Source of the DNA: Enterobacter phage EC152
Sequence record: PP681140.1
DNA: 64,000 bases
Direction: 5' to 3' (one strand)
The notes under the pieces are model-generated. The model was not told the DNA's origin, searched no databases, and saw nothing but the letters and a program-made list of their open reading frames with translations. Positions 30,878-39,022 of this stretch are shown piece after piece. The translations under genes and the position numbers were made by a program. The number at the start of each line of letters is the position of its first letter. The first letter of the stretch is position 1.

Positions 30878-30954
30878 GGTTCTGTAGCTTAGTTGGTTAG
30901 AGCGCTTCCCTCATAAGGAAGAGGTCGCAGGTTCAATCCCTGCCAGAACTACCA
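30878..30954 (+). tRNA. tRNA-Met(CAT)
   Basis: Cloverleaf with anticodon loop CTCATAA, T-loop TTCAATC and an encoded CCA. Confidence 0.8.
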
Positions 30955-30968
30955 AACGAGGAGAGACC

Positions 30969-31136
30969 ATGAATAAGATTTATGATTTTTTCGGAATTGG
31001 TAAACCCAAGAGTATGTCTTCAAACTGGGATTCCAGAATGGACTCATCTGTAGGGAATAGTAATTCTGTGTACGACCGTTACAATGTTTCACTCGGTCTT
31101 CATAAAGAAACGAAAAAAGATTCAAAAAACGATTGA
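30969..31136 (+). CDS. micro-ORF (55 aa)
   Basis: GAGGAGAGACCATG RBS. Its stop overlaps the -35 of the next promoter. Confidence 0.4.
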   Translation: MNKIYDFFGIGKPKSMSSNWDSRMDSSVGNSNSVYDRYNVSLGLHKETKKDSKND

Positions 31137-31161
31137 CAAAGGAAGTACGAAAGATTAGTAT
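31133..31161 (+). promoter_or_regulatory. sigma70 promoter TTGACA-N17-TAGTAT
   Basis: TTGACAaaggaagtacgaaagatTAGTAT. Confidence 0.6.
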
Positions 31162-31205
31162 TACCAACGTCAACAAGACATTAGCAAATAGAGGAGAAAT
31201 ACAAC

Positions 31206-31535
31206 ATGGCTAAGAAAAACGCAACTAAGAAAGTTTCTGCAATCGACGCAATCAAACAGCCTTTCCAGTTTGAGTCGAAGTCAACGCAGACTCACTCTGC
31301 ACCACACGATGTTCGTCTGGGCGGTGTAACCAAGACCGTTTCCATTCGTAAAAAGCGTCGTGATGAAGACGGCAACGTTGTATTCATCTGGGAATCCGTT
31401 TCCCGCGTTGAAGGCGGTCAGGTTATTTCTGCCTCACATCGTGTTCGCACTGGCAAGACCAAGCGTGAACGCGCTGGTAAAGCTAAAGACGCTAAGGTTG
31501 TTGAAGCCGTAGCGCCGAAAGGTAAGAAGAAGTAA
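31206..31535 (+). CDS. small lysine-rich basic protein (possible DNA-binding)
   Basis: GAGGAGAAATACAACATG RBS. 109 aa with K/R-rich termini. Confidence 0.6.
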   Translation: MAKKNATKKVSAIDAIKQPFQFESKSTQTHSAPHDVRLGGVTKTVSIRKKRRDEDGNVVFIWESVSRVEGGQVISASHRVRTGKTKRERAGKAKDAKVVEAVAPKGKKK

Positions 31536-31559
31536 TAAAGCTTTACTGAACTGATGGTT

Positions 31560-31743
31560 TGTGTTGAAATGGCGCTGTCGAAAATTGTCGGCAGGGTCAT
31601 AGTAAACAGTCGCCCCAGTTCGGTAATTAATTCCTCCGGCATGGGGATAGACGAAGCTGGCTGCGGCGATGCGTCTTAAAATAAAGGGCTGCGGCAACCG
31701 TGACGACCCCGTGCAACGTCTTGAAAAACACGGGACTGATTTT
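31560..31743 (+). ncRNA. structured non-coding region
   Basis: Hairpin CCCGTG...CACGGG plus T-tract near 31705-31743, and a GGCTGCGGC direct repeat. No tRNA fold was found. Confidence 0.3.
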
Positions 31744-31819
31744 GGGGTATTAACTCAGCGGTTAGAGTAGCGGCCTCTTAAGCCGAAGGTCGAAGGTTCG
31801 AATCCTTCATGCCCTACCA
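31744..31819 (+). tRNA. tRNA-Lys(CTT)
   Basis: Anticodon stem GCGGC/GCCGA with loop CTCTTAA. T-arm GAAGGTTCGAATCCTTC. CCA encoded. Confidence 0.75.
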
Positions 31820-31827
31820 AACAACGG

Positions 31828-32033
31828 GCTTTGGAAGTAATGCTTAATTACGGGTGAGGAATCCCCGGACCCCCAGCTTAGGGGTGCATCACGTAAGGTT
31901 CGAATCCTTACCTTCGCCCACCATTTTGAGAGAAAAGAGAACTGGGGTTCAACTCCCTTGTCTCGGAAGGCCCGCCTTCTAACAGGGCCGATAGCTTACG
32001 CAATGGTTAAAGCGCTTTTCTTTCAAAAACTGC
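31828..32033 (+). ncRNA. tRNA-like remnants
   Basis: A perfect T-arm TAAGGTTCGAATCCTTA followed by ...CGCCCACCA has no matching 5' acceptor strand. GCCGATAGCTTACGCAATGGTTAAAGCGC resembles a tRNA 5' half. Confidence 0.35.
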
Positions 32034-32062
32034 TTGACAATGAAATTTTTAAAGTGTAGTAT
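32034..32062 (+). promoter_or_regulatory. sigma70 promoter TTGACA-N17-TAGTAT
   Basis: TTGACAatgaaatttttaaagtgTAGTAT. Confidence 0.6.
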
Positions 32063-32093
32063 CACAACTCAATTTTACGCAAAGGAGAACTTA

Positions 32094-32705
32094 ATGTCTG
32101 ATTCTAAAACTGTAATTTCTGTAACTGAACGCGCTACCAAAGCTGTTGCAACTGCTGCCACTGGCCTGAGTAAGGTTGTTTCTGAACTGCAATCTCTGGC
32201 TGAAGGTTCTGAGCGTATCAGTCAAGAAATTCAGTTTAAACAGCAAGAGCTTGGCAATATCGAAGTGCAGTTCAACGAAAAGCTGGCTGAAGAAAAATCT
32301 AAGCTGAAGATCAAGGTTCTGGAAAATGAAGACGGTGTTCTGAACACTCTTCTGAAGGCTCGTGGCCTTGTAGCAATCGAGCCGGGTGTTGTTGATGGTC
32401 TGCGTTACGAACTGTCGGCTGCTCAGAACAATAACGAAGATGCGATCACCGCCGCAGTAGATGCTGCAAAACGTTCTGCCGCTATCGAACTGAACGCTGT
32501 TAAGTCCAATCTGGAATCAGCACACAAAGTTGCAATTGCCGAACTGAACGCCAATACTAAGGCAGACAAAGATCGTATTGCAATGCTGACCGAACAGCTT
32601 GAAGCAGCCCGTGCAGACCTGAAGGCAGAACGCGAAACCCGTCTGGAAATCGCTAAAGCTGATGCGAATCGTCAAGGTGTTGTAGTCAACACTGGTAAAA
32701 ACTAA
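32094..32705 (+). CDS. coiled-coil protein (203 aa)
   Basis: The ATG at 32094 follows AAGGAGAA. The longer track ORF from 32034 would include the promoter. Confidence 0.65.
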   Translation: MSDSKTVISVTERATKAVATAATGLSKVVSELQSLAEGSERISQEIQFKQQELGNIEVQFNEKLAEEKSKLKIKVLENEDGVLNTLLKARGLVAIEPGVVDGLRYELSAAQNNNEDAITAAVDAAKRSAAIELNAVKSNLESAHKVAIAELNANTKADKDRIAMLTEQLEAARADLKAERETRLEIAKADANRQGVVVNTGKN

Positions 32706-32714
32706 TACCGCTGT

Positions 32715-32732
32715 GCCGACACGGATGTCGGC
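32715..32732 (+). terminator. stem-loop GCCGACAcggaTGTCGGC (no U-tract)
   Basis: Perfect 7-bp stem after the stop at 32705. Confidence 0.35.
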
Positions 32733-32782
32733 AAACATTTGAAGTAAATTTAAAATTTAAAGTTCATTGAGAGGAGAATTAT

Positions 32783-33430
32783 ATGTCTACTAAGATTTCT
32801 GTAACCCGCGCTCTGGCAACTCTGACCAAGGTTGAGGGTAAGATCGAAAAGCGTATCGACCAGTTGAACACTGTTCAGATCGCAAAAGGGACCGAAGACC
32901 ACCGTTCGATCCCAGGTTCTCTGGTTAGCATTGCTGACTTCGAGACTTCTGCTAAGGCAGACTTCCAAGGCCTGCAAGACCTGCTGGCAGTACGTGATGA
33001 ACTGAAGGCGAAAGTTGTTCAGTCCAACGCAGTAACTCTTGTCACCGTTGGTGGTAAAGAGATGACGGTTGCTCAGGCAATTGAAGGCAAGCGCACAGTT
33101 GCTTACAAAGAACTGCTCCTGTCCAAACTGAAAGCGCAGTACAACTTCGCTCAGAAGCGCCTGGATAAAGAAGTCGCTGACTTCGAAACCAAGCTGGAAC
33201 AAGCCCGTGCTCCGTACATCAGTCGTGACAAAGCGCCTGATCCAGAGCAGATTAAGACGGTAGAAGGTCCGACCCGTCTGATGAGCACACCGTCTATCGT
33301 TGACCCACTGGGTCTGGCAGACGTAATCCGAAATCTGGAAACAGAGATCGAAGACTTCAAATCCAACGTTGACTTTGTGTTGTCCGAGTCCAACGCACGG
33401 ACTGAAGTAGAGATTGAGGGATCAATCTAA
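32783..33430 (+). CDS. coiled-coil/alpha-helical protein (215 aa)
   Basis: GAGAGGAGAATTATATG RBS. Confidence 0.65.
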   Translation: MSTKISVTRALATLTKVEGKIEKRIDQLNTVQIAKGTEDHRSIPGSLVSIADFETSAKADFQGLQDLLAVRDELKAKVVQSNAVTLVTVGGKEMTVAQAIEGKRTVAYKELLLSKLKAQYNFAQKRLDKEVADFETKLEQARAPYISRDKAPDPEQIKTVEGPTRLMSTPSIVDPLGLADVIRNLETEIEDFKSNVDFVLSESNARTEVEIEGSI

Positions 33431-33640
33431 AATAACTTGAGGAATTATGAAAAACATCTTGTAATTCCTCTCGTTAACTGATAAAGTTTCAAAATGCTGT
33501 TTTTGGTTAGCGAAGTTGGAAACATCTTGCCTCTACCGAGGCCGGAGGTTAAACTGCCTCGAACTTAATCATATAGGATGATACTTAACGTATGTTTCCG
33601 CAGACCACAACTCTGCCGAAATTATCGAATCGCGAATTCG

Positions 33641-33700
33641 AAAGACTTCAAAGTTCAACATTCAAAGATTAAAGTTCAAAGCTTAATGTTTAAACTTGAA
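33641..33700 (+). repeat. AT-rich iteron-like repeats (TTCAAAG x3 and related)
   Basis: cttcaaagttcaacattcaaagattaaagttcaaagcttaatg. Confidence 0.4.
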
Positions 33701-33817
33701 ACTTCTAAACCACAAAGCTAAAATTTCGTTGATTATTAAAATCCTGGGTCAAAGGTCCTTAGCTCACAAGATATGGCTAACCACACCTCCGGGCAGTTAA
33801 TCGGAAACAGCATTCTT

Positions 33818-33892
33818 GCTCCTAAAGCATAAGTGGCGATGCAGCGGCCTTGTAAGCCGAGGAAGTGGGTTCGATTCCTACTGGGAGCACCA
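33818..33892 (+). tRNA. tRNA-Thr(TGT)
   Basis: Acceptor GCTCCTA/TGGGAGC. Anticodon loop CTTGTAA. CCA encoded. Confidence 0.75.
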
Positions 33893-33898
33893 AACAAT

Positions 33899-33972
33899 TC
33901 GTTGATAGCCTTAGCGGTAAAGGCCCCCTCTGCGCAAGGGGTTCAGTGGTTCGAATCCACTTCAGCGAGCCA
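33899..33972 (+). tRNA. tRNA, anticodon ambiguous (GCG or TGC)
   Basis: T-arm AGTGGTTCGAATCCACT and 3' CCA. The acceptor starts with T. The anticodon loop CTGCGCA is non-canonical. Confidence 0.45.
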
Positions 33973-33974
33973 AT

Positions 33975-34083
33975 GCAGGGTAGGCGGTTTGTCAACCGCG
34001 AGGTCCATCCAGACCTGAAAATAGCTCTCGGCTTGGAGTGGAGAGTGAATACATAGGTGGTTAGATTCCACCACCCTGCTCCA
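33975..34083 (+). ncRNA. tRNA-like RNA with a ~35-nt insertion
   Basis: Perfect acceptor GCAGGGT/ACCCTGC, T-arm GGTGGTTAGATTCCACC and a CCA end. The internal arms do not form a canonical anticodon stem-loop. Confidence 0.4.
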
Positions 34084-34274
34084 AAACATATTTTAAAGTG
34101 CATTAGCTCAGATTATTTGATTCACGGACTGATCATCTGTGAGGAGAATGAGCCTAACTGAATGGAGTTTCAACGACAAAGGCCACGTTGTTGTAACAGA
34201 AGTTCTAAGGTCGTAGAGCGCTGTTCGCGGAGAACAGAGGTCGGTGGAGTCACCATGCAGCTTAAAATATGTTT

Positions 34275-34352
34275 GCGCTCTTGGTCCAATCTGGTAGAGG
34301 CATGGGTGTTAAGCTCCCAGGGTTCCCGGTTCGAGTCCGGGAGGGCGCACCA
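34275..34352 (+). tRNA. tRNA-like, anticodon undetermined
   Basis: Acceptor GCGCTCT/AGGGCGC, T-arm CCCGGTTCGAGTCCGGG and CCA. The D and anticodon arms pair poorly (region TGTTAAG). Confidence 0.4.
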
Positions 34353-34356
34353 GATA

Positions 34357-34431
34357 CGGGGTATAGTCTAGAGGATAGGCAGGAGTCTTCTAAACTCCTT
34401 TACGTGGGTTCGAATCCTACTACCTCGACCA
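34357..34431 (+). tRNA. tRNA-Arg(TCT)
   Basis: Anticodon stem GGAGT/ACTCC with loop CTTCTAA. CCA encoded. Confidence 0.7.
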
Positions 34432-34436
34432 CTTAT

Positions 34437-34510
34437 GCGCGGTTGCTGGAGTGGCAACAGCTTCGGCTGCAAACCGAATGTCAGGTGTTCGATTCACCTA
34501 CCGTGCTCCA
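34437..34510 (+). tRNA. tRNA-Cys(GCA)
   Basis: Anticodon stem TTCGG/CCGAA with loop CTGCAAA. CCA encoded. Confidence 0.75.
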
Positions 34511-34549
34511 AGTTGTTGATATTTTTTGCTATAAATGATAAAATAACCC

Positions 34550-34578
34550 TTGACAGAGATATTGAACTCTGATAACAT
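34550..34578 (+). promoter_or_regulatory. sigma70 promoter TTGACA-N17-TAACAT (TG extended)
   Basis: TTGACAgagatattgaactctgaTAACAT. Confidence 0.55.
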
Positions 34579-34596
34579 GAATAAGTGGGGTTAATT

Positions 34597-34962
34597 ATGG
34601 CAACAAAACAAGCACTTACCAAGCGTCGTAGAGGTAAGGGTCGTCCTTTAAAAGAGGAGTCTAACGCAATTCAGCTTGAGAAGAACATTCTTGACCTGAA
34701 AACAAAGATGATTGCTATGATCCCTGATGCACATATGGTCCTTCGTGATCTTATGATGAACAAGGATACTAAAGACAACATCCGTGAGAATATTGCTCGT
34801 TTCGTTATTGAAGAAGGTAAGCAAATGCTTTCTGATTACTTCGATGAAGAGAACGAAAATGAAGAAGAAACAAAGAACGTCGATGATGGTTCCGGAAAGG
34901 GCGCTGATAAACCAGTAGCAAAACCTTTCTCAACTGACATCGTACAGTTCAAACAAGGTTAA
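34597..34962 (+). CDS. hypothetical protein (121 aa)
   Basis: The ATG at 34597 (MATKQALTK) lies downstream of the promoter. The track ORF start at 34585 is less likely. Confidence 0.55.
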   Translation: MATKQALTKRRRGKGRPLKEESNAIQLEKNILDLKTKMIAMIPDAHMVLRDLMMNKDTKDNIRENIARFVIEEGKQMLSDYFDEENENEEETKNVDDGSGKGADKPVAKPFSTDIVQFKQG

Positions 34963-34964
34963 TT

Positions 34965-35052
34965 GGGGCGGTTCCCGGAGCGGCAAACGGGCGGGATTGT
35001 AAATCCCTTGGCATCGCGTCCTTCGTAGGTTCGAGTCCTACTCGCCCCACCA
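34965..35052 (+). tRNA. tRNA-Tyr(GTA), class II
   Basis: Long variable arm. Anticodon loop TTGTAAA. A73 and CCA. Confidence 0.7.
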
Positions 35053-35058
35053 ATTAAC

Positions 35059-35133
35059 GGGAGTATAGCTCAGTGGTAGAGCAAACGGTCGATAACCGTT
35101 AGGTCGCTGGTTCAAGCCCAGCTACTCCCACCA
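35059..35133 (+). tRNA. tRNA-Ile(GAT)
   Basis: Anticodon stem AACGG/CCGTT with loop TCGATAA. CCA encoded. Confidence 0.65.
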
Positions 35134-35139
35134 AACAAA

Positions 35140-35215
35140 GCGTTATTAGTGCAGTGGTCCAGCATCCCGTCCTTCCAAGTCGGTGACATCGGTTCGAATC
35201 CGATATAACGCTCCA
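35140..35215 (+). tRNA. tRNA-Gly(TCC)
   Basis: Anticodon loop CTTCCAA (one stem mismatch). T-arm ATCGGTTCGAATCCGAT. Confidence 0.6.
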
Positions 35216-35221
35216 ATTAAT

Positions 35222-35296
35222 GCTCCTATCGGCTAACGGTCAGGCCGCCAGACTTTCAATCTGGAAATCCGAGTTCGATTCTCGGTAGGAGTACCA
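35222..35296 (+). tRNA. tRNA-Glu(TTC)
   Basis: Anticodon stem CCAGA/TCTGG with loop CTTTCAA. Confidence 0.75.
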
Positions 35297-35303
35297 AATT
35301 TGT

Positions 35304-35380
35304 AGGGACTTAGCACAATTGGCTAGTGCAGCGGATTCCAAATCCGCAGGTTCTGGGTTCGAATCCCAGGGTCCCTGCCA
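35304..35380 (+). tRNA. tRNA-Trp(CCA)
   Basis: Anticodon stem GCGGA/TCCGC with loop TTCCAAA. Confidence 0.75.
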
Positions 35381-35388
35381 AATTATTT

Positions 35389-35506
35389 AGCTCTGTAGCA
35401 GGTAAATCGGGCCTGATACCTCTAAGTAGTGGTTGCAAACGCGAATGGGGTTTGAAGTGAGCGGTTACCACGTTCGACTCGTGGCGCTTCATTCTGTTGC
35501 AGAGCT
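35389..35506 (+). ncRNA. structured RNA candidate (tRNA-associated stable RNA?)
   Basis: Outer stem AGCTCTG...CAGAGCT encloses a tRNA-like minihelix TGAAGTG-AGCGGTTA-CCACGTTCGACTCGTGG-CGCTTCA. Confidence 0.4.
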
Positions 35507-35517
35507 AAGTGATTTTT

Positions 35518-35593
35518 AGGAGGATGGTGTAATTGGTTAGCACACGGGGCTTTGATCTCCGGAGTTAGGGTTCGAGTCCTTATCTTCCTGCCA
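35518..35593 (+). tRNA. tRNA-Gln(TTG)
   Basis: Anticodon stem CGGGG/CTCCG with loop CTTTGAT. Confidence 0.75.
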
Positions 35594-35664
35594 AATTTGA
35601 GTGTTTTTGGGTTGAATGATGGATCAGCTATGCTGTGATGGCTTCAACAGGAGAACACTCATGT

Positions 35665-35741
35665 GTGGCTATATCATAACTGGATAATGACACTGCATGT
35701 GAGGCAGTTCTATGTCGGTTCGAGTCCGACTAGCCACCCCA
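35665..35741 (+). tRNA. tRNA-His(GTG)
   Basis: Anticodon stem ACTGC/GCAGT with loop ATGTGAG. Confidence 0.75.
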
Positions 35742-35745
35742 ATTT

Positions 35746-35820
35746 GCAGATACGAGTTAACCTCTAACTTCCCCCATGTTTCATGGGTTCTAGTCCAGGA
35801 TAACTTTTGTACGTATCTGC
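35746..35820 (+). ncRNA. structured RNA candidate
   Basis: Outer stem GCAGATACG...CGTATCTGC (9 bp) with internal CCCCCATG...CATGGG hairpin. Confidence 0.35.
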
Positions 35821-35828
35821 CGCGAATT

Positions 35829-35920
35829 GGTGGAATGGTCGAGCGGTTAAAGACAGCACCTTGGAAAGGTGTCGGCCCCTTCACAGGGGTCCGTAGGTTC
35901 GAATCCTACTTCCACCGCCA
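35829..35920 (+). tRNA. tRNA-Ser(GGA), class II
   Basis: Anticodon loop TTGGAAA. Long variable arm. CCA encoded. Confidence 0.75.
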
Positions 35921-35935
35921 CTTTGAGGAGATGAT

Positions 35936-36091
35936 ATGCAAAAACTTTTGCGTTGTAAGAAGGTGTTTGGTCGTTGCAAGATTCATGGTAGTAACTGTGG
36001 TGTTGCAGACGAGATCCAATCAATCCCTATAACTCGTGCGAAAGAGAAAGCAGATCTTCGCAAAGAAATTAAAGAACAATTGGAAGATTAA
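35936..36091 (+). CDS. micro-ORF (51 aa), Cys-rich N-terminus
   Basis: GAGGAG RBS. Translation begins MQKLLRCKKVFGRCKIHGSNCG. The 3' end overlaps the acceptor stem of the next tRNA. Confidence 0.3.
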   Translation: MQKLLRCKKVFGRCKIHGSNCGVADEIQSIPITRAKEKADLRKEIKEQLED

Positions 36092-36172
36092 CCCTAACGG
36101 TAAGGGATCTCTTTGCTAAAGAGACAGTAGCCCCTGAAAAGGGGTGTGTCAGTTCAAGTCTGACATCTTCCT
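36082..36172 (+). tRNA. tRNA-Ser(GCT), class II
   Basis: Anticodon stem TCTCT/AGAGA with loop TTGCTAA. Variable arm present. CCA is not fully encoded (CCG). Confidence 0.65.
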
Positions 36173-36174
36173 CC

Positions 36175-36263
36175 GGAGAGCAGGCTGCATGGTGCAGACT
36201 CCGGTTTGAACCCGGTCCCATCGTAGCGATACGGTGACAGTTCGATTCTGTTGCTCTCCTCCA
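36175..36263 (+). tRNA. tRNA-Ser(TGA), class II
   Basis: Anticodon loop TTTGAAC. Acceptor GGAGAGC/GCTCTCC. CCA encoded. Confidence 0.65.
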
Positions 36264-36268
36264 AATAT

Positions 36269-36355
36269 GGGTTGGTAGCCAAGCGGCGACGTATGTCTAA
36301 GGCACTCGACTTTTAATCGAGGGATCGTTGGGTTCGAATCCCACCCGACCCACCA
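36269..36355 (+). tRNA. tRNA-Lys(TTT)-like with expanded D region
   Basis: Anticodon stem CTCGA/TCGAG with loop CTTTTAA. A GACgtatGTC mini-hairpin is inserted in the D-loop. 87 nt. Confidence 0.45.
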
Positions 36356-36360
36356 TACAA

Positions 36361-36463
36361 CGGGACGATAGTTTAATGAGGCTGGAAATGCGACGGCAAC
36401 CAGCGGAGCAGAATGACGGGCATCCAGGACCGTAGGTGAGGTGCAAACCCTCAGATCCCGCCA
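36361..36463 (+). ncRNA. tRNA-like/stable RNA candidate
   Basis: Ends ...CCTCAGATCCCGCCA with a T-like arm TGAGGTGCAAACCCTCA and an internal hairpin GCTGG...CCAGC. It does not fold as a canonical tRNA. Confidence 0.35.
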
Positions 36464-36487
36464 AATTGAAATAAGTTAAAATAATTC

Positions 36488-36516
36488 TTGCAAAAGGTTG
36501 TTTTCACTGATAAAGT
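36488..36516 (+). promoter_or_regulatory. sigma70 promoter TTGCAA-N17-TAAAGT (TG extended)
   Basis: TTGCAAaaggttgttttcactgaTAAAGT, about 8 nt upstream of the next tRNA. Confidence 0.5.
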
Positions 36517-36524
36517 AATTACAT

Positions 36525-36613
36525 GGTTCTTTGACCGAGAGGCCGATGGTAGCAGGCTGTTAACCTGCCGGGAGCAATCCCCGACGAAGGTTCGAATCCT
36601 TCAGGAACCGCCA
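36525..36613 (+). tRNA. class II (long variable arm) tRNA with GTT anticodon (Asn) and G73
   Basis: The D-arm and anticodon stem (GACCGAGAGGCCGATGGT, GCAGG/CCTGC) resemble tRNA-Tyr, but the loop is CTGTTAA. Variable arm CGGGAGCAATCCCCG. Confidence 0.5.
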
Positions 36614-36618
36614 AATTT

Positions 36619-36695
36619 GGAGATATAGTTTAAACGGATAAAATACACCCCTGTCACGGGTATGTTCCGGGTTCGATGCCCGGTATCTCCGCCAA
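36619..36695 (+). tRNA. tRNA-Asp(GTC)
   Basis: Anticodon stem CACCC/GGGTA with loop CTGTCAC. CCA encoded. Confidence 0.75.
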
Positions 36696-36700
36696 ATTTG

Positions 36701-36756
36701 CAGAGTCGTACTAGCACTGGAAAGTCCTTCGGGATGTTGATACCTCTAGTTCTGCA
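36701..36756 (+). ncRNA. hairpin element (GCAGA...TCTGC with internal GTCCTTCGGGAT tetraloop)
   Basis: An inter-tRNA spacer structure, possibly a processing signal. Confidence 0.3.
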
Positions 36757-36817
36757 TTTAATTAGCTAGCCAGCAATACCAGTTGCAGTGTCTGGGACAA
36801 TTAAAATTCTGCACCTT

Positions 36818-36895
36818 CGGAGCGTAGCGCAGTCTGGTCAGCGTGGGTGCCTTGGATGCACTGGGTCGCAGGTTCGAATCCTGCCGCTCCGACCA
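36818..36895 (+). tRNA. tRNA-Pro(TGG)
   Basis: Acceptor CGGAGCG/CGCTCCG. Anticodon loop CTTGGAT. Confidence 0.75.
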
Positions 36896-36900
36896 ATTTA

Positions 36901-36975
36901 GCAGGTATAGTTCAACGGATAGAGCATCAGTTTACGAAGCTGAGAATCGGGGTTCGAATCCCTGTATCTGCACCA
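36901..36975 (+). tRNA. tRNA-Arg(ACG)
   Basis: Anticodon stem TCAGT/GCTGA with loop TTACGAA. Confidence 0.75.
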
Positions 36976-36979
36976 ATAT

Positions 36980-37055
36980 GGGGCTGTAGTTTATTTGGAT
37001 AAAATCGCAGGCTTGCACCTTGCAGAACTGAGTTCGATTCTCAGTGGCTCCACCA
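36980..37055 (+). tRNA. tRNA-Ala(TGC)
   Basis: G3:U70 pair present. Anticodon loop CTTGCAC. Confidence 0.75.
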
Positions 37056-37090
37056 AATTAAGGCTTGGATTTCTTCGGACCCAAGCGCAC

Positions 37091-37167
37091 GGGCGATTGA
37101 TGGAATTGGTATACGTGTCGGATTTAGATTCCGAATTTTGGGGGTTCGAGTCCCCTGTCGCCCACCA
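37091..37167 (+). tRNA. type I tRNA with TAG anticodon (Leu CUA reader?)
   Basis: Anticodon stem TCGGA/TCCGA with loop TTTAGAT. A73. A 5-nt variable loop, which is unusual for Leu. Confidence 0.5.
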
Positions 37168-37175
37168 CTTCTAAT

Positions 37176-37249
37176 GCTTCCTTAGTTTAATGGTAGAACC
37201 CTGTCTTTACACGGCAGTTGCGGTAGTTCGATTCTACCAGGAAGTACCA
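37176..37249 (+). tRNA. tRNA-Val(TAC)
   Basis: Anticodon stem CTGTC/GGCAG with loop TTTACAC. Confidence 0.75.
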
Positions 37250-37256
37250 ATCTTAT

Positions 37257-37332
37257 GGGGTTGTAACTCAGTTGGTAGAGTGCCTGCCTGAAGAGCAGAT
37301 GGTCGGTGGTTCGAGTCCACCCGGCCCCACCA
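37257..37332 (+). tRNA. tRNA-Phe(GAA)
   Basis: Anticodon loop CTGAAGA. T-arm GGTGGTTCGAGTCCACC. Confidence 0.75.
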
Positions 37333-37338
37333 AATAAT

Positions 37339-37420
37339 TGCGTGTTAGTGAAACGGATATATAGATCACGTTGGCCTCATAAGCCGAAAATTGTGGGTTC
37401 GACTCCCATCCACGCATCCA
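37339..37420 (+). tRNA. second CAT-anticodon tRNA (Met or Ile2) with long D-loop
   Basis: Anticodon stem TTGGC/GCCGA with loop CTCATAA. 14-nt D-loop. CCA encoded. Confidence 0.6.
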
Positions 37421-37528: not shown

Positions 37529-37556
37529 GCCCCGCTCTTGCGGGGCTTTTCTTTTT
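37529..37556 (+). terminator. rho-independent terminator ending the tRNA array
   Basis: GCCCCGCtcttGCGGGGCTTTTCTTTTT. Confidence 0.75.
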
Positions 37557-37597
37557 CTGGTACACTCCAATGGTTAACTAAACCAAAGGAGAAAACC

Positions 37598-39022
37598 ATG
37601 CTTCATATCTACCCAAAAGAAGACTTCCAACGTGAATTCAACATCCTCAAAAGCCTGATCCCGAAAGGTGTGTATGAGATCCTTAAGCGCCTCGATGCTC
37701 GTGTTGCAGGTGGTACGCTGACATCACTTTTCTCTAACCGGGAAGTGAATGACCTTGATCTCTATTTCCCATCCTGGGAGAATCTTGAGGTTTTTCTGGC
37801 ATACATGACTGATCGTGGACTCTTGGTTGGGGACAGCGATCTTACCCCAACTTCAAACAACTGGGGCAACTCGAAGCGTTCATTCGTATACTTCCTTGAA
37901 CTTGACAAGCCGGGTAGCCATAAAGACTACGTGAATGCCTTGGTATGCGAAAGAAAAGAACGACCACCTACAGAGCTTTCAGCCAGCCAGCTTTCAAAGC
38001 TTTATTCTTTGCTTGAATCTCGTAATGGCAATGTTTTCAAGGCCATTCAAAAAGCCTCGGAAGATAACAACCCCGACACCATCTACAATCTGGGGATGAC
38101 TGATAAGAGCGTCATGTTCACCAATCAATCCTCTCCCGTTATGCAGGTGATCGCATTTGATGTTTTTGCTGATGCAGAGGCGATCTTTAACAAGTTCGAT
38201 TTCACGATCAATATGGGCTGTTTTAGCTTTGCAAGCGAGAAATGGGAGTTTGATAGTCGCTTCCTGAAACACTTGGCTCAGAAAGTTCTGGTGATTAACC
38301 CAGGCACTGATTACCCCATTATCAGTATGCTACGCTCTGATAAGTATCGCGCCCGTGGCTACACGATCTCTCGTCGAGAAACAATGAAGCTTGGTATTGC
38401 AGCGTCAGGACTTAAAATCGAGTCGTGGGAAGATGCCAAGGCACATTTGAGTGGGATGTATGGTACAAACGTTGAAGACTTATTCAATGAAACAAGACCA
38501 TTTTCATTTGATCTGTTATTTGATAAACTAGATTCAGCGGGGGATTATCTGATCGCCTCTATCGCAACTGAATCTGAAAAAGGACAGTTCAGCAGATATC
38601 GTGGTCTGAAACCAGAGAACATCTTTACTATGTATCAACGGTTACGTATCAACACCGGGCGTCCACATTTCTCTAAACTGTGGGGTGTCTGTCCGGCAGA
38701 GAACTTCTATTTGATGCAGGCCAACAATCCGCAACAGGCCGTTGGTCTTCTTGAGACAAAACCTGCTGATAAGCTCCTCAAGTACATGAACGTTTATATT
38801 GATGAAAAAGAGGCGTATGACGTTTACAAGTCGTGGGGAGAGAAAGGAAAGACAGGGAGATGGGGAGACAGATTATCAAAACCGGGGGCTGTGCTTCTGG
38901 AGGTCACTGTCCTTGACCCAACGAAAATCGCCTATGACGATGCACAGATTGACATTTTAGATGATGAAGAAACGCTTCTGAAAATAGAGCGGCTTATTGA
39001 ATCTAACGGGGATATTTCATGA
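37598..39022 (+). CDS. Pol-beta-superfamily nucleotidyltransferase (475 aa)
   Basis: hG[GS]-x-DhD motif in RVAGGTLTSLFSNREVNDLDLYF. The ATG at 37598 follows AAAGGAGAAAACC. It sits directly after the tRNA array. Confidence 0.55.
   Translation: MLHIYPKEDFQREFNILKSLIPKGVYEILKRLDARVAGGTLTSLFSNREVNDLDLYFPSWENLEVFLAYMTDRGLLVGDSDLTPTSNNWGNSKRSFVYFLELDKPGSHKDYVNALVCERKERPPTELSASQLSKLYSLLESRNGNVFKAIQKASEDNNPDTIYNLGMTDKSVMFTNQSSPVMQVIAFDVFADAEAIFNKFDFTINMGCFSFASEKWEFDSRFLKHLAQKVLVINPGTDYPIISMLRSDKYRARGYTISRRETMKLGIAASGLKIESWEDAKAHLSGMYGTNVEDLFNETRPFSFDLLFDKLDSAGDYLIASIATESEKGQFSRYRGLKPENIFTMYQRLRINTGRPHFSKLWGVCPAENFYLMQANNPQQAVGLLETKPADKLLKYMNVYIDEKEAYDVYKSWGEKGKTGRWGDRLSKPGAVLLEVTVLDPTKIAYDDAQIDILDDEETLLKIERLIESNGDIS

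Follow-up and report, generated by a model that had tools for sequence, protein, structure and literature searches.

Enterobacter phage EC152 carries, within the 64,000-nt stretch analysed here (PP681140.1; hereafter the window), a gene that probably encodes the working asparagine tRNA of the phage on a five-armed (class II) body. The tRNA is well formed, with a GUU anticodon, G73 and CCA, it is the sole Asn decoder of a nearly complete phage set, and it is a member of a large phage and mobile-array family of long-arm GUU tRNAs. The long arm is a widespread trait of phage and mobile-array tRNA-Asn genes and not a single oddity, which the original prediction for this gene had not foreseen.

ARAGORN calls a tRNA-Asn(gtt) at exactly 36525–36613 (+), and the Rfam model RF00005 matches it over its full length with 51.2 bits (gathering score 29; E ≈ 6e-9), without any non-canonical pair and with a 14-nt insertion that falls in the variable region. 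The RF00005 cloverleaf is complete (acceptor, D, anticodon and T arms, T-loop consensus), as ARAGORN concurs, and the same gene is already annotated as tRNA-Asn in Cronobacter phage vB_CsaM_GAP31 (GenBank JN882284, 89773–89861). The stem geometry is 7/5, i.e., an acceptor stem of 7 bp and a T stem of 5 bp, and not the 8/4 or 9/3 of allo-tRNAs. ARAGORN, Rfam and direct reading of the sequence agree on what had been proposed at the outset, a class II tRNA with a GUU anticodon, G73 and a CTGTTAA loop, i.e., the main AsnRS identity elements placed on a type II scaffold. A variable stem-loop is also present as predicted; its length had been given as 15 nt and is corrected here to a 17-nt region in which the hairpin, a 4-bp stem with a GCAA tetraloop, takes up 12 nt (Table 1).

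Table 1. Features of the tRNA-Asn gene and its upstream region (positions in the window).
Feature	Position	Strand	Sequence or description	Basis
Whole tRNA-Asn(GUU) gene	36525–36613	+	89 nt, class II architecture, CCA encoded; order GGUUCUU, UG, ACC-GAGAGGCCGAU-GGU, A, anticodon arm, variable region, T arm, AGGAACC, G, CCA	ARAGORN, Rfam
Acceptor stem, 5′ strand	36525–36531	+	GGUUCUU; partner AGGAACC at 36603–36609; includes U6-G67 wobble	Sequence reading
D arm	36534–36550	+	Class II type; 3-bp stem ACC/GGU, 11-nt loop GAGAGGCCGAU	Sequence reading, Rfam
Anticodon arm	36552–36568	+	GCAGG-CUGUUAA-CCUGC; loop CUGUUAA 36557–36563; anticodon GUU 36559–36561	ARAGORN, Rfam
Variable region	36569–36585	+	17 nt, C-GGGA-GCAA-UCCC-CGAC; linker C 36569, GGGA 36570–36573, GCAA tetraloop 36574–36577, UCCC 36578–36581, linker CGAC 36582–36585	Sequence reading; compensatory changes in relatives
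T arm	36586–36602	+	GAAGG-UUCGAAU-CCUUC	Rfam
Discriminator and 3′ end	36610–36613	+	G73 (36610), then encoded CCA	Sequence reading
Possible promoter	36488–36516	+	TTGCAA, 17-nt spacer, TAAAGT; 3′ end 8 nt before the tRNA	Inferred from upstream conservation

Set against the features that define each tRNA type, the gene combines several of them. A variable region of at least 10 nt holding a stem-loop with covariation support makes it class II, whereas described cellular tRNA-Asn has a short variable loop of 4–5 nt in place of the 17 nt, 4-bp stem and tetraloop found here. Both Asn hallmarks, G34 U35 U36 and G73, are present; the U1:A72 pair typical of bacterial tRNA-Asn is replaced by G1:C72 in the GAP31 clade. 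The GUA and A73 of tRNA-Tyr are absent from the gene and from all its relatives, which carry GUU and G73; the arm geometry and the body similarity are those of tRNA-Tyr, with the body about as close to phage tRNA-Ser. The tRNA-Ser combination of G73, G1:C72 and G2:C71 is present, but not the tRNA-Ser arm (5–7 bp and about one unpaired 3′ base), since the arm here has 4 bp and four unpaired 3′ bases. Upstream of the gene, phage PVP-SE1 shares a conserved stretch of about 45 nt, despite the differing acceptor stems of the two tRNAs. The promoter candidate in Table 1 matches 8 of 12 positions and a strict sigma-70 scan called no promoter upstream of the gene; we offer a dedicated promoter only as a suggestion.

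The window is 99.5% identical to GAP31 (Seunavirus, Vequintavirinae) over 96% of 5 kb (megablast), and the same 89-nt gene is found in phages 4MG, LNA4 and VIK251 at 96.6–97.8% identity, with 96.6% for 4MG (BLAST). Genes of 80–84% identity are present in Av-05, in TH18-like phages and in Salmonella phage 7t3, which has a 349-kb genome and lies outside the subfamily; in PVP-SE1 the syntenic position is occupied by a version of 85 nt. All relatives examined receive a tRNA-Asn(gtt) call and keep GUU and G73, and GTT is found in every one of them, from 97% down to below 60% identity, including the independently sequenced genomes of GAP31, 4MG, LNA4, VIK251, Av-05, PVP-SE1 and 7t3. The acceptor stem is identical among GAP31, 4MG, Av-05, TH18 and the jumbo phage 7t3, and their other stems vary. 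Compensatory evolution maintains the extra arm, whose stem pairs as GGGA/UCCC in GAP31, UGGA/UCCA in 4MG, GAGA/UCUC in 7t3, GAGU/ACUC in PVP-SE1 and GGGAG/CUCCC in Av-05. Two carriers of a long-arm tRNA-Asn, 4MG and the BASEL phage GreteKellenberger, infect E. coli K-12.

The arm goes far beyond what chance would give, since it is conserved and covaries in relatives. Among 103 unique viral long-arm sequences, the variable region mostly measures 12–22 nt (one of 11 nt and one of 27 nt), the arm stem has 3–4 bp in 81 and the loop is a tetraloop in 72. A GNRA loop caps 57 of the 103 arms, 40 of these with GAAA, where 1.65 would be expected from shuffles, an excess of about 35-fold; likewise, the mean best stem is 3.63 bp and falls to 2.87 ± 0.08 bp after shuffling each variable region. 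MAFFT alignments placed the arm stems out of register, and a covariance model built from six sequences was used instead to align 150 hits, 83 of them Asn rows. In these rows the four arm pairs are 93–98% canonical in 59–68 sequences, with all four Watson–Crick types, a level that shuffles never reach, and changes on both sides occur in 4/4 pairs of the arm helix. Pair counting gave 98.4% of cells paired and a covariation score of 0.978, compared with 0.188 when shuffled and at most 0.144 with slid partners; this score is favoured by an alignment fitted to the structure, a fit that does not enter the shuffle test, which used unaligned variable regions. In 76 of the 103 long-arm sequences (74%) and in 82 of 105 short-arm Asn forms (78%), U1:A72 forms the first pair, with G1:C72 in Tyr, and C2:G71 is found in about half of the long-arm Asn family.

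How far the family extends was assessed with three pattern scans of IMG/VR. Scan 1 (CTGTTAA, 20–30 nt, GGTTCRAATCC, 10 nt, GCCA) gave at least 120 matches, and among the matches listed almost all are five-armed tRNAs of very diverse sequence. Scan 2, with unrestricted spacing, provides an unbiased sample; 112 of its matches have class I spacing and 8 have class II spacing. Each of the eight class II loci belongs to an array of five or more tRNAs, and half of the class I loci hold only one or two tRNAs. In the scan 2 sample, 10 of 53 array-borne Asn tRNAs carry an arm (19%) versus 17 of 423 tRNAs of other class I isotypes (4%), an enrichment with an odds ratio of 5.6 (p = 2e-4). Scan 3 demanded neither G73 nor CCA and added 87 matches, 72 of them tRNA-like, in which position 73 is G in 61 (85%), U in 10, C in one and A in none. 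Since the search patterns demanded the anticodon loop, and in scans 1 and 2 also G73 and CCA, these features are not independent evidence in the respective sets. Altogether, the pattern scans found long-arm GUU tRNAs more than 200 times, in viral contigs of diverse kinds.

Among GenBank phages, many T5-like Epseptimavirus genomes, GreteKellenberger and T4-like Klebsiella phages have an annotated long-arm tRNA-Asn of 84 nt; some Tequintavirus-like BASEL phages also carry the long form, and Pseudomonas jumbo phages have more distant, partial matches. Long-arm genes are routinely annotated simply as tRNA-Asn. Phage T5 itself was considered as a model and ruled out, its tRNA-Asn being of the class I short form (78 nt). 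The same pattern applied to a genome collection returned genuine long-arm Asn genes that, among the matches listed, almost always lie within giant arrays of 17–36 tRNAs per 8 kb, in Micromonospora, Mycobacterium, Acidobacteriota, Planctomycetota, Verrucomicrobiota and Flavobacteriales; the remaining matches listed are archaeal intron-containing tRNA-Asn genes and unrelated elements. The giant arrays are the accessory “tRNA array units” described before (PMC4758250, PMC12803027). Clustering of the flanking ORFs of 121 long-arm and 98 short-arm loci, in search of a partner protein, returned no conserved partner gene; the only flanking ORFs in common encode HNH and GIY-YIG homing endonucleases.

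The phage's own array comprises 25 tRNA genes on the plus strand at 30878–37332 (ARAGORN), and two further Rfam matches bring it to about 27. Nearly all amino acids are covered, and 36525–36613 is the only Asn decoder among them. A separate, intact tRNA-Tyr (GUA, A73) lies at 34965–35052, and the arms of the three tRNA-Ser genes in the window have 6–7 bp. Other members of the array are also unusual in shape: both Leu tRNAs (34275–34352 and 37091–37167) have 5-nt variable loops and A73 without a long arm, and tRNA-Lys(UUU) at 36269–36355 has an additional D-loop hairpin, GAC-GUAU-GUC, which reads GAC-GCAA-GUC in the PVP-SE1 homologue. Short-form tRNAs account for 56 of 137 unique Leu-anticodon tRNAs in viral loci, and GNRA-capped arms are also found in phage Lys, Thr, Glu, Met, Ile, Gly and Pro tRNAs. 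Just 3′ of the array, a 494-aa ORF showed only a faint PHROG match to nucleotidyltransferases and no match in Pfam or PDB.

The body had been described as Tyr-like, and that description holds in part. BLAST with 36525–36613 in E. coli returned tRNA-Tyr genes only, in 5426 of 5426 genomes, at 75–76% identity over positions 11–78; E. coli tRNA-Tyr has the same 18 bases across the T arm (C plus GAAGGUUCGAAUCCUUC), and several of the differences between the two genes are compensatory. The arm points the same way. In viral loci the Asn long arm has zero or one unpaired 5′ base, 3–4 bp and three or four unpaired 3′ bases; phage Tyr arms from the same loci share this geometry, with GNRA caps being rare (5/66), whereas phage Ser arms mostly have 5–6 bp, 18–20 nt overall and about one unpaired 3′ base, and phage Leu arms have one or two unpaired 3′ bases. 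The D arm does not follow: its 20-nt segment matches tRNA-Ser(GCU) of Pseudomonas phage PPSC2 at 20 of 20 positions and E. coli tRNA-Tyr at only 14 of 20, and without the acceptor stem and the arm the body is 88% identical to the former and 84% to the latter. Since the D-arm segment is that of a phage tRNA-Ser, “Tyr-like” fits the arm and the T arm, and the body as a whole is generically class II, not specifically Tyr. Many family members have 4-bp D stems of the class I type, and nearest-neighbour body typing, which is noisy, finds an acceptor stem resembling class I Asn and a D arm resembling Ser, Ile or Tyr. With U1:A72 in 74% and these many 4-bp D stems, the long-arm Asn family looks heterogeneous in origin.

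Regarding charging, E. coli AsnRS recognises its tRNA by the three anticodon bases together with G73, a set that can be moved to tRNA-Lys (PMC9976931). G73 is an antideterminant for TyrRS and LeuRS, with A73 and U35 being key Tyr elements (PMC9976931, PMC7609411). SerRS disregards the anticodon and recognises G73 together with the long arm and the way it is oriented, with G1:C72 and G2:C71 assisting (PMC7609411, PMC9976931), and C2:G71 is listed among its antideterminants (PMC9976931). Since all AsnRS determinants are present, we infer that host AsnRS would charge the phage tRNA through its anticodon and G73, with TyrRS and LeuRS presumably blocked by G73. SerRS would need a longer arm in another orientation and may be kept off by the short Tyr-type arm with its 4 bp and four unpaired 3′ bases. 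Once charged, the tRNA would read AAC and AAU during phage gene expression. Asn codons make up 4.7% of phage codons, 295 AAC versus 100 AAU (75% AAC). The NrdA encoded in the window is 35% identical to E. coli NrdA, and the 33 aligned AAY positions correspond to Asn in 12 cases and to Ser in 3, in line with average conservation; the catalytic SNLC motif is among these positions, and AAY in phage genes clearly means Asn. Two points count against a working tRNA-Asn. Class II synthetases approach the tRNA from the side of the variable region, and a long arm might hinder AsnRS. Moreover, G1:C72, G2:C71, G73 and the Ser-identical D arm of the GAP31 clade all favour SerRS.

Three readings had been offered originally: an unusual tRNA-Asn, a decoding-manipulation tRNA and a degenerate Tyr copy. 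The last, in which a tRNA-Tyr copy mutated from GTA to GTT or was misread in sequencing, has only the closest E. coli gene on its side and can practically be dismissed: comparison with orthologous tRNAs found GUU everywhere and GTA in no relative, independently sequenced genomes included, the phage has its intact tRNA-Tyr elsewhere in the array, all stems are perfect and G73 co-varies with GUU. No alternative fold of 36525–36613 with a 5-nt variable loop exists either, so that the unusual tRNA-Asn stands on both counts; its place as the only Asn tRNA of the array, the retention of GUU and G73, the compensatory arm changes and AAY standing for Asn also support it. Manipulation of decoding would mean that SerRS charges the tRNA wholly or partly with serine and that Asn codons are sometimes read as Ser, deliberately or as a tolerated error. 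The G73, G1:C72, G2:C71 and C11:G24 of the GAP31 clade are compatible with this, as are the D arm, which a phage tRNA-Ser shares exactly, and the reliance of SerRS on arm plus G73 (PMC7609411, PMC9976931). We nevertheless find it quite unlikely, because the arm geometry is of the Tyr type (6–7 bp in the phage's own Ser tRNAs, and about one unpaired 3′ base in phage Ser tRNAs generally) and because mis-insertion would damage essential Asn residues, AAY codons being found at conserved and catalytic Asn positions. In addition, about half of the family carries the SerRS antideterminant C2:G71, and one would hardly expect a harmful activity from the single Asn tRNA of the set or from a trait conserved in hundreds of lineages.

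If the tRNA does work in asparagine decoding, the main rival to a functional arm is that the arm is functionless, a neutral legacy of a class II (Tyr or Ser) ancestor, which seems rather doubtful to us. GUA would have become GUU and A73 would have become G73, and AsnRS, reading only the anticodon and G73, would tolerate the arm. The two point changes would suffice, the Asn identity set can be moved to another tRNA (PMC9976931), the arm has the geometry seen in phage Tyr tRNAs, and the GAP31 body stands close to both E. coli tRNA-Tyr (84%) and phage tRNA-Ser(GCU) (88%). However, acceptor stems of the Asn type (U1:A72) prevail in the family and many of its D stems are of the class I type, so the family looks like Asn tRNAs that gained an arm and not like Tyr derivatives. 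GNRA caps, 35-fold over expectation, are rare in phage Tyr arms, compensatory change keeps the arm across very distant lineages, and similar arms occur in phage Lys, Thr, Glu and Met tRNAs. A further possibility is that the RNA is a decoy, sponge or tagged RNA and not mainly a translation substrate, for example one that soaks up a nuclease or toxin, or a GNRA-capped handle for a phage or host protein. GNRA hairpins are common docking motifs for protein and RNA, which speaks for such a role. So do engineered hairpin tags tolerated in variable arms (PMC7590224) and the service of phage tRNAs in counter-defence (PMC11555353). Nevertheless, the translation features are intact (anticodon loop, T loop, 7-bp acceptor stem and CCA), the gene fills the sole Asn slot of a full decoding set and the search of flanking loci returned no conserved neighbouring partner gene, which leaves this idea very improbable.

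For the working tRNA-Asn, we hypothesize that the arm is most likely kept since the phage tRNA then differs in shape from host tRNA-Asn: host factors that read the tRNA-Asn body, such as defence nucleases and toxins, would miss the armed tRNA, while its synthetase identity elements would stay intact despite the reshaped body. More broadly, and only tentatively, mobile tRNA sets, in phages as arrays and in bacteria as “tRNA array units”, may systematically reshape tRNA bodies while keeping minimal synthetase identity, with Asn gaining a GNRA-capped Tyr-type arm, Leu losing its arm, Lys acquiring a D-loop hairpin and Thr, Glu and Met sometimes gaining arms; the purpose would be to escape shape-recognising host immunity or toxins, and in the GAP31 clade the arm, G73 and G1-G2 might add a dual Asn/Ser identity. 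No defence system is known to us that recognises tRNA-Asn through its body. Phage tRNAs counter tRNA-cleaving defences (PMC11555353, PMC10264068, PMC13056530) and an anti-defence role has been proposed for mobile array units (PMC12803027); a shape unlike that of the host isoacceptor, with the minimal determinants kept, fits this counter-defence picture. On the other hand, the tRNA-Asn of a T5-like phage, used as a control, gave no rescue from PrrC170 (PMC11555353), which counts against it.

According to textbooks, a long variable arm is found only in Leu, Ser, bacterial Tyr and Sec tRNAs, and this rule underlies how SerRS, LeuRS and TyrRS discriminate their substrates. A conserved long-arm tRNA-Asn family would show that AsnRS tolerates a fifth arm and would offer a natural case in which to test what keeps SerRS from a long-arm tRNA with G73. 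It also suggests that body shape, beyond the anticodon loop, is a variable in the conflict of phage tRNAs with tRNA-targeting host systems. For annotation, isotype models can misjudge long-arm tRNA-Asn genes. In the full-text literature open without subscription, the scope of our search, we found no description of a long-arm tRNA-Asn in phages or arrays.

Compared with bacterial class I tRNA-Asn (E. coli asnT/U/V/W), the phage tRNA shares GUU in a CUGUUAA loop, G73 and, presumably, AsnRS, and most members of the long-arm family also share the U1:A72 first pair. It differs in having a variable region with a stem-loop (12–22 nt across the phage family) where the cellular tRNA has a 5-nt loop and, in the GAP31 clade, in G1:C72 and a class II-type D arm (3 bp, 11-nt loop). 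With bacterial tRNA-Tyr (class II, GUA, A73) it has in common the arm geometry (0–1, 3–4 bp, 3–4), G34 and U35, and the GAP31-clade gene is 75% identical to E. coli tyrT/V over positions 11–78 with an identical T arm; unlike tRNA-Tyr, it has U36 in place of A36, G73 in place of A73, another acceptor stem and a GNRA cap. The tRNA-Ser (class II, G73) shares G73, G1:C72 and G2:C71, the phage tRNA-Ser(GCU) D arm is that of the GAP31 clade, and GNRA-capped arms are common in phage Ser tRNAs; however, Ser tRNAs have Ser anticodons and a longer arm (5–7 bp, 18–20 nt) with about one unpaired 3′ base and consequently another orientation.

Known tRNAs that combine a long arm with an unexpected anticodon resemble the phage tRNA in that combination and differ from it in other respects. 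The nematode nev-tRNAs also place on a class II body the anticodon of an amino acid whose usual tRNAs are class I, but they keep leucine identity and consequently mistranslate, and they belong to nematodes, not to phages or bacteria (PMC3333845); in the phage long-arm Asn tRNAs, discriminator and anticodon match the synthetase of their own amino acid. Allo-tRNAs of environmental bacteria (Mukai et al. 2017, reviewed in PMC7609411) likewise have a long arm and many unexpected anticodons, with an 8/4 or 9/3 geometry and serine or alanine identity, whereas the phage tRNA-Asn is 7/5 and its anticodon and discriminator agree with each other. Phage counter-defence tRNAs include a T5-like tRNA-Tyr acting against Retron-Eco7 and phage tRNA-Lys acting against PrrC or PARIS (PMC11555353, PMC11464382, PMC10264068); in the literature searched, none is described with a whole extra arm, and no defence system aimed at tRNA-Asn is linked to such an arm. 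Like the tRNA described here, they are phage isoacceptors that differ from the host copy and are still charged, and their arrays are interspersed with homing endonucleases; unlike it, the documented cases rely on overexpression or on changes in the anticodon loop.

Among the long-arm GUU tRNAs, a family that combines the Asn anticodon with a variable-region hairpin, one subgroup carries U73 in place of G73 and has a D-arm of the type UGCUUUAG..GGNCGAAAAGUC. At two loci, a U73 member occurs together with a G73 member. The matches listed from genome loci also included single tRNAs from Alphaproteobacteria and other MAGs, in which the GUU anticodon sits on a Ser-like body with a long Ser-type arm and G73; these are candidates for Ser-charged Asn decoders. 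Other genome loci among those matches, from Verrucomicrobiota, Acidobacteriota and Deltaproteobacteria, hold “half tRNA-Asn” repeats of the form CTGTTAATCCGCC-NNNN-GGCGGAT..GTAGGTTCGAATCCTAC..GGAGCCA, which lack the tRNA 5′ half and at times occur as paired copies spaced 60–320 bp apart.

The tRNA-Lys(UUU) of the window was not called by ARAGORN despite its Rfam score. Its D loop holds an additional 3-bp hairpin, GAC-GUAU-GUC, and the corresponding hairpin in the homologue from phage PVP-SE1 is GAC-GCAA-GUC. The interval separating tRNA-Lys from tRNA-Asn could represent a decayed tRNA. Its terminal bases, ...GAUCCCGCCAAAUUGA, resemble the 3′ ends of neighbouring tRNAs; tRNA-calling tools give no tRNA in this interval, and its folding does not improve on that of shuffled sequences (z = −0.42). 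Elsewhere in the array, ARAGORN called nothing at the position of an additional tRNA, annotated in GenBank as tRNA-Met, and a tRNA-Sec-like match was weak. The ORF found immediately 3′ of the array had zero matches in Pfam and PDB, and its sole match was a faint one to a PHROG nucleotidyltransferase (residues 47–90, E = 1.7e-4). The deposited record of Cronobacter phage GAP31 has a 70-nt “tRNA-OTHER” pseudogene between tRNA-Glu and tRNA-Trp that is absent from the window; the window and the deposited sequence are thus closely related and not identical.

Features of the window and of fetched viral or genome loci (L-numbers)
Feature	Location	Details
tRNA-Sec-like match	window 33974-34080	23.7 bits, below threshold
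tRNA-Leu(UAA)	window 34275-34352	A73; 5-nt variable loop
tRNA-Glu to tRNA-Trp interval	window 35222-35380; GAP31, L001 239-476	
tRNA-Lys(UUU)	window 36269-36355	Rfam 50.5 bits
PVP-SE1 tRNA-Lys homologue	L002 1531-1616	
tRNA-Lys to tRNA-Asn stretch	window 36356-36470	
tRNA-Leu(UAG)	window 37091-37167	A73; 5-nt variable loop
Additional tRNA (Met)	window 37339-37417	Rfam 45 bits
494-aa ORF	window 37538-39022	+ strand
Arms in other isotypes, viral examples	L015, L051, L059, L083, L187, L011, L012, L022	
U73 long-arm GUU tRNAs	L395, L437, L385, L391, L393, L430, L440, L443	
Ser-like GUU tRNAs	L264, L311, L320, L341, L360	genome loci
“Half tRNA-Asn” elements	L248, L262, L303, L339 and about 30 more	among the matches listed

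Variable-region hairpin arms, frequently with a GNRA cap, also occur in phage Thr, Lys, Glu, Met, Ile, Gly, Pro, Cys and Trp tRNAs. Across viral arrays sampled without bias, such arms were present in ~4% of class I isotypes. Both Leu tRNAs of the window array have the class I shape. This short form was found in 56 of 137 unique Leu-anticodon tRNAs from the fetched viral loci, where all short-form members encoding CCA (48/48) carry A73; to our knowledge, bacterial tRNA-Leu is invariably class II.
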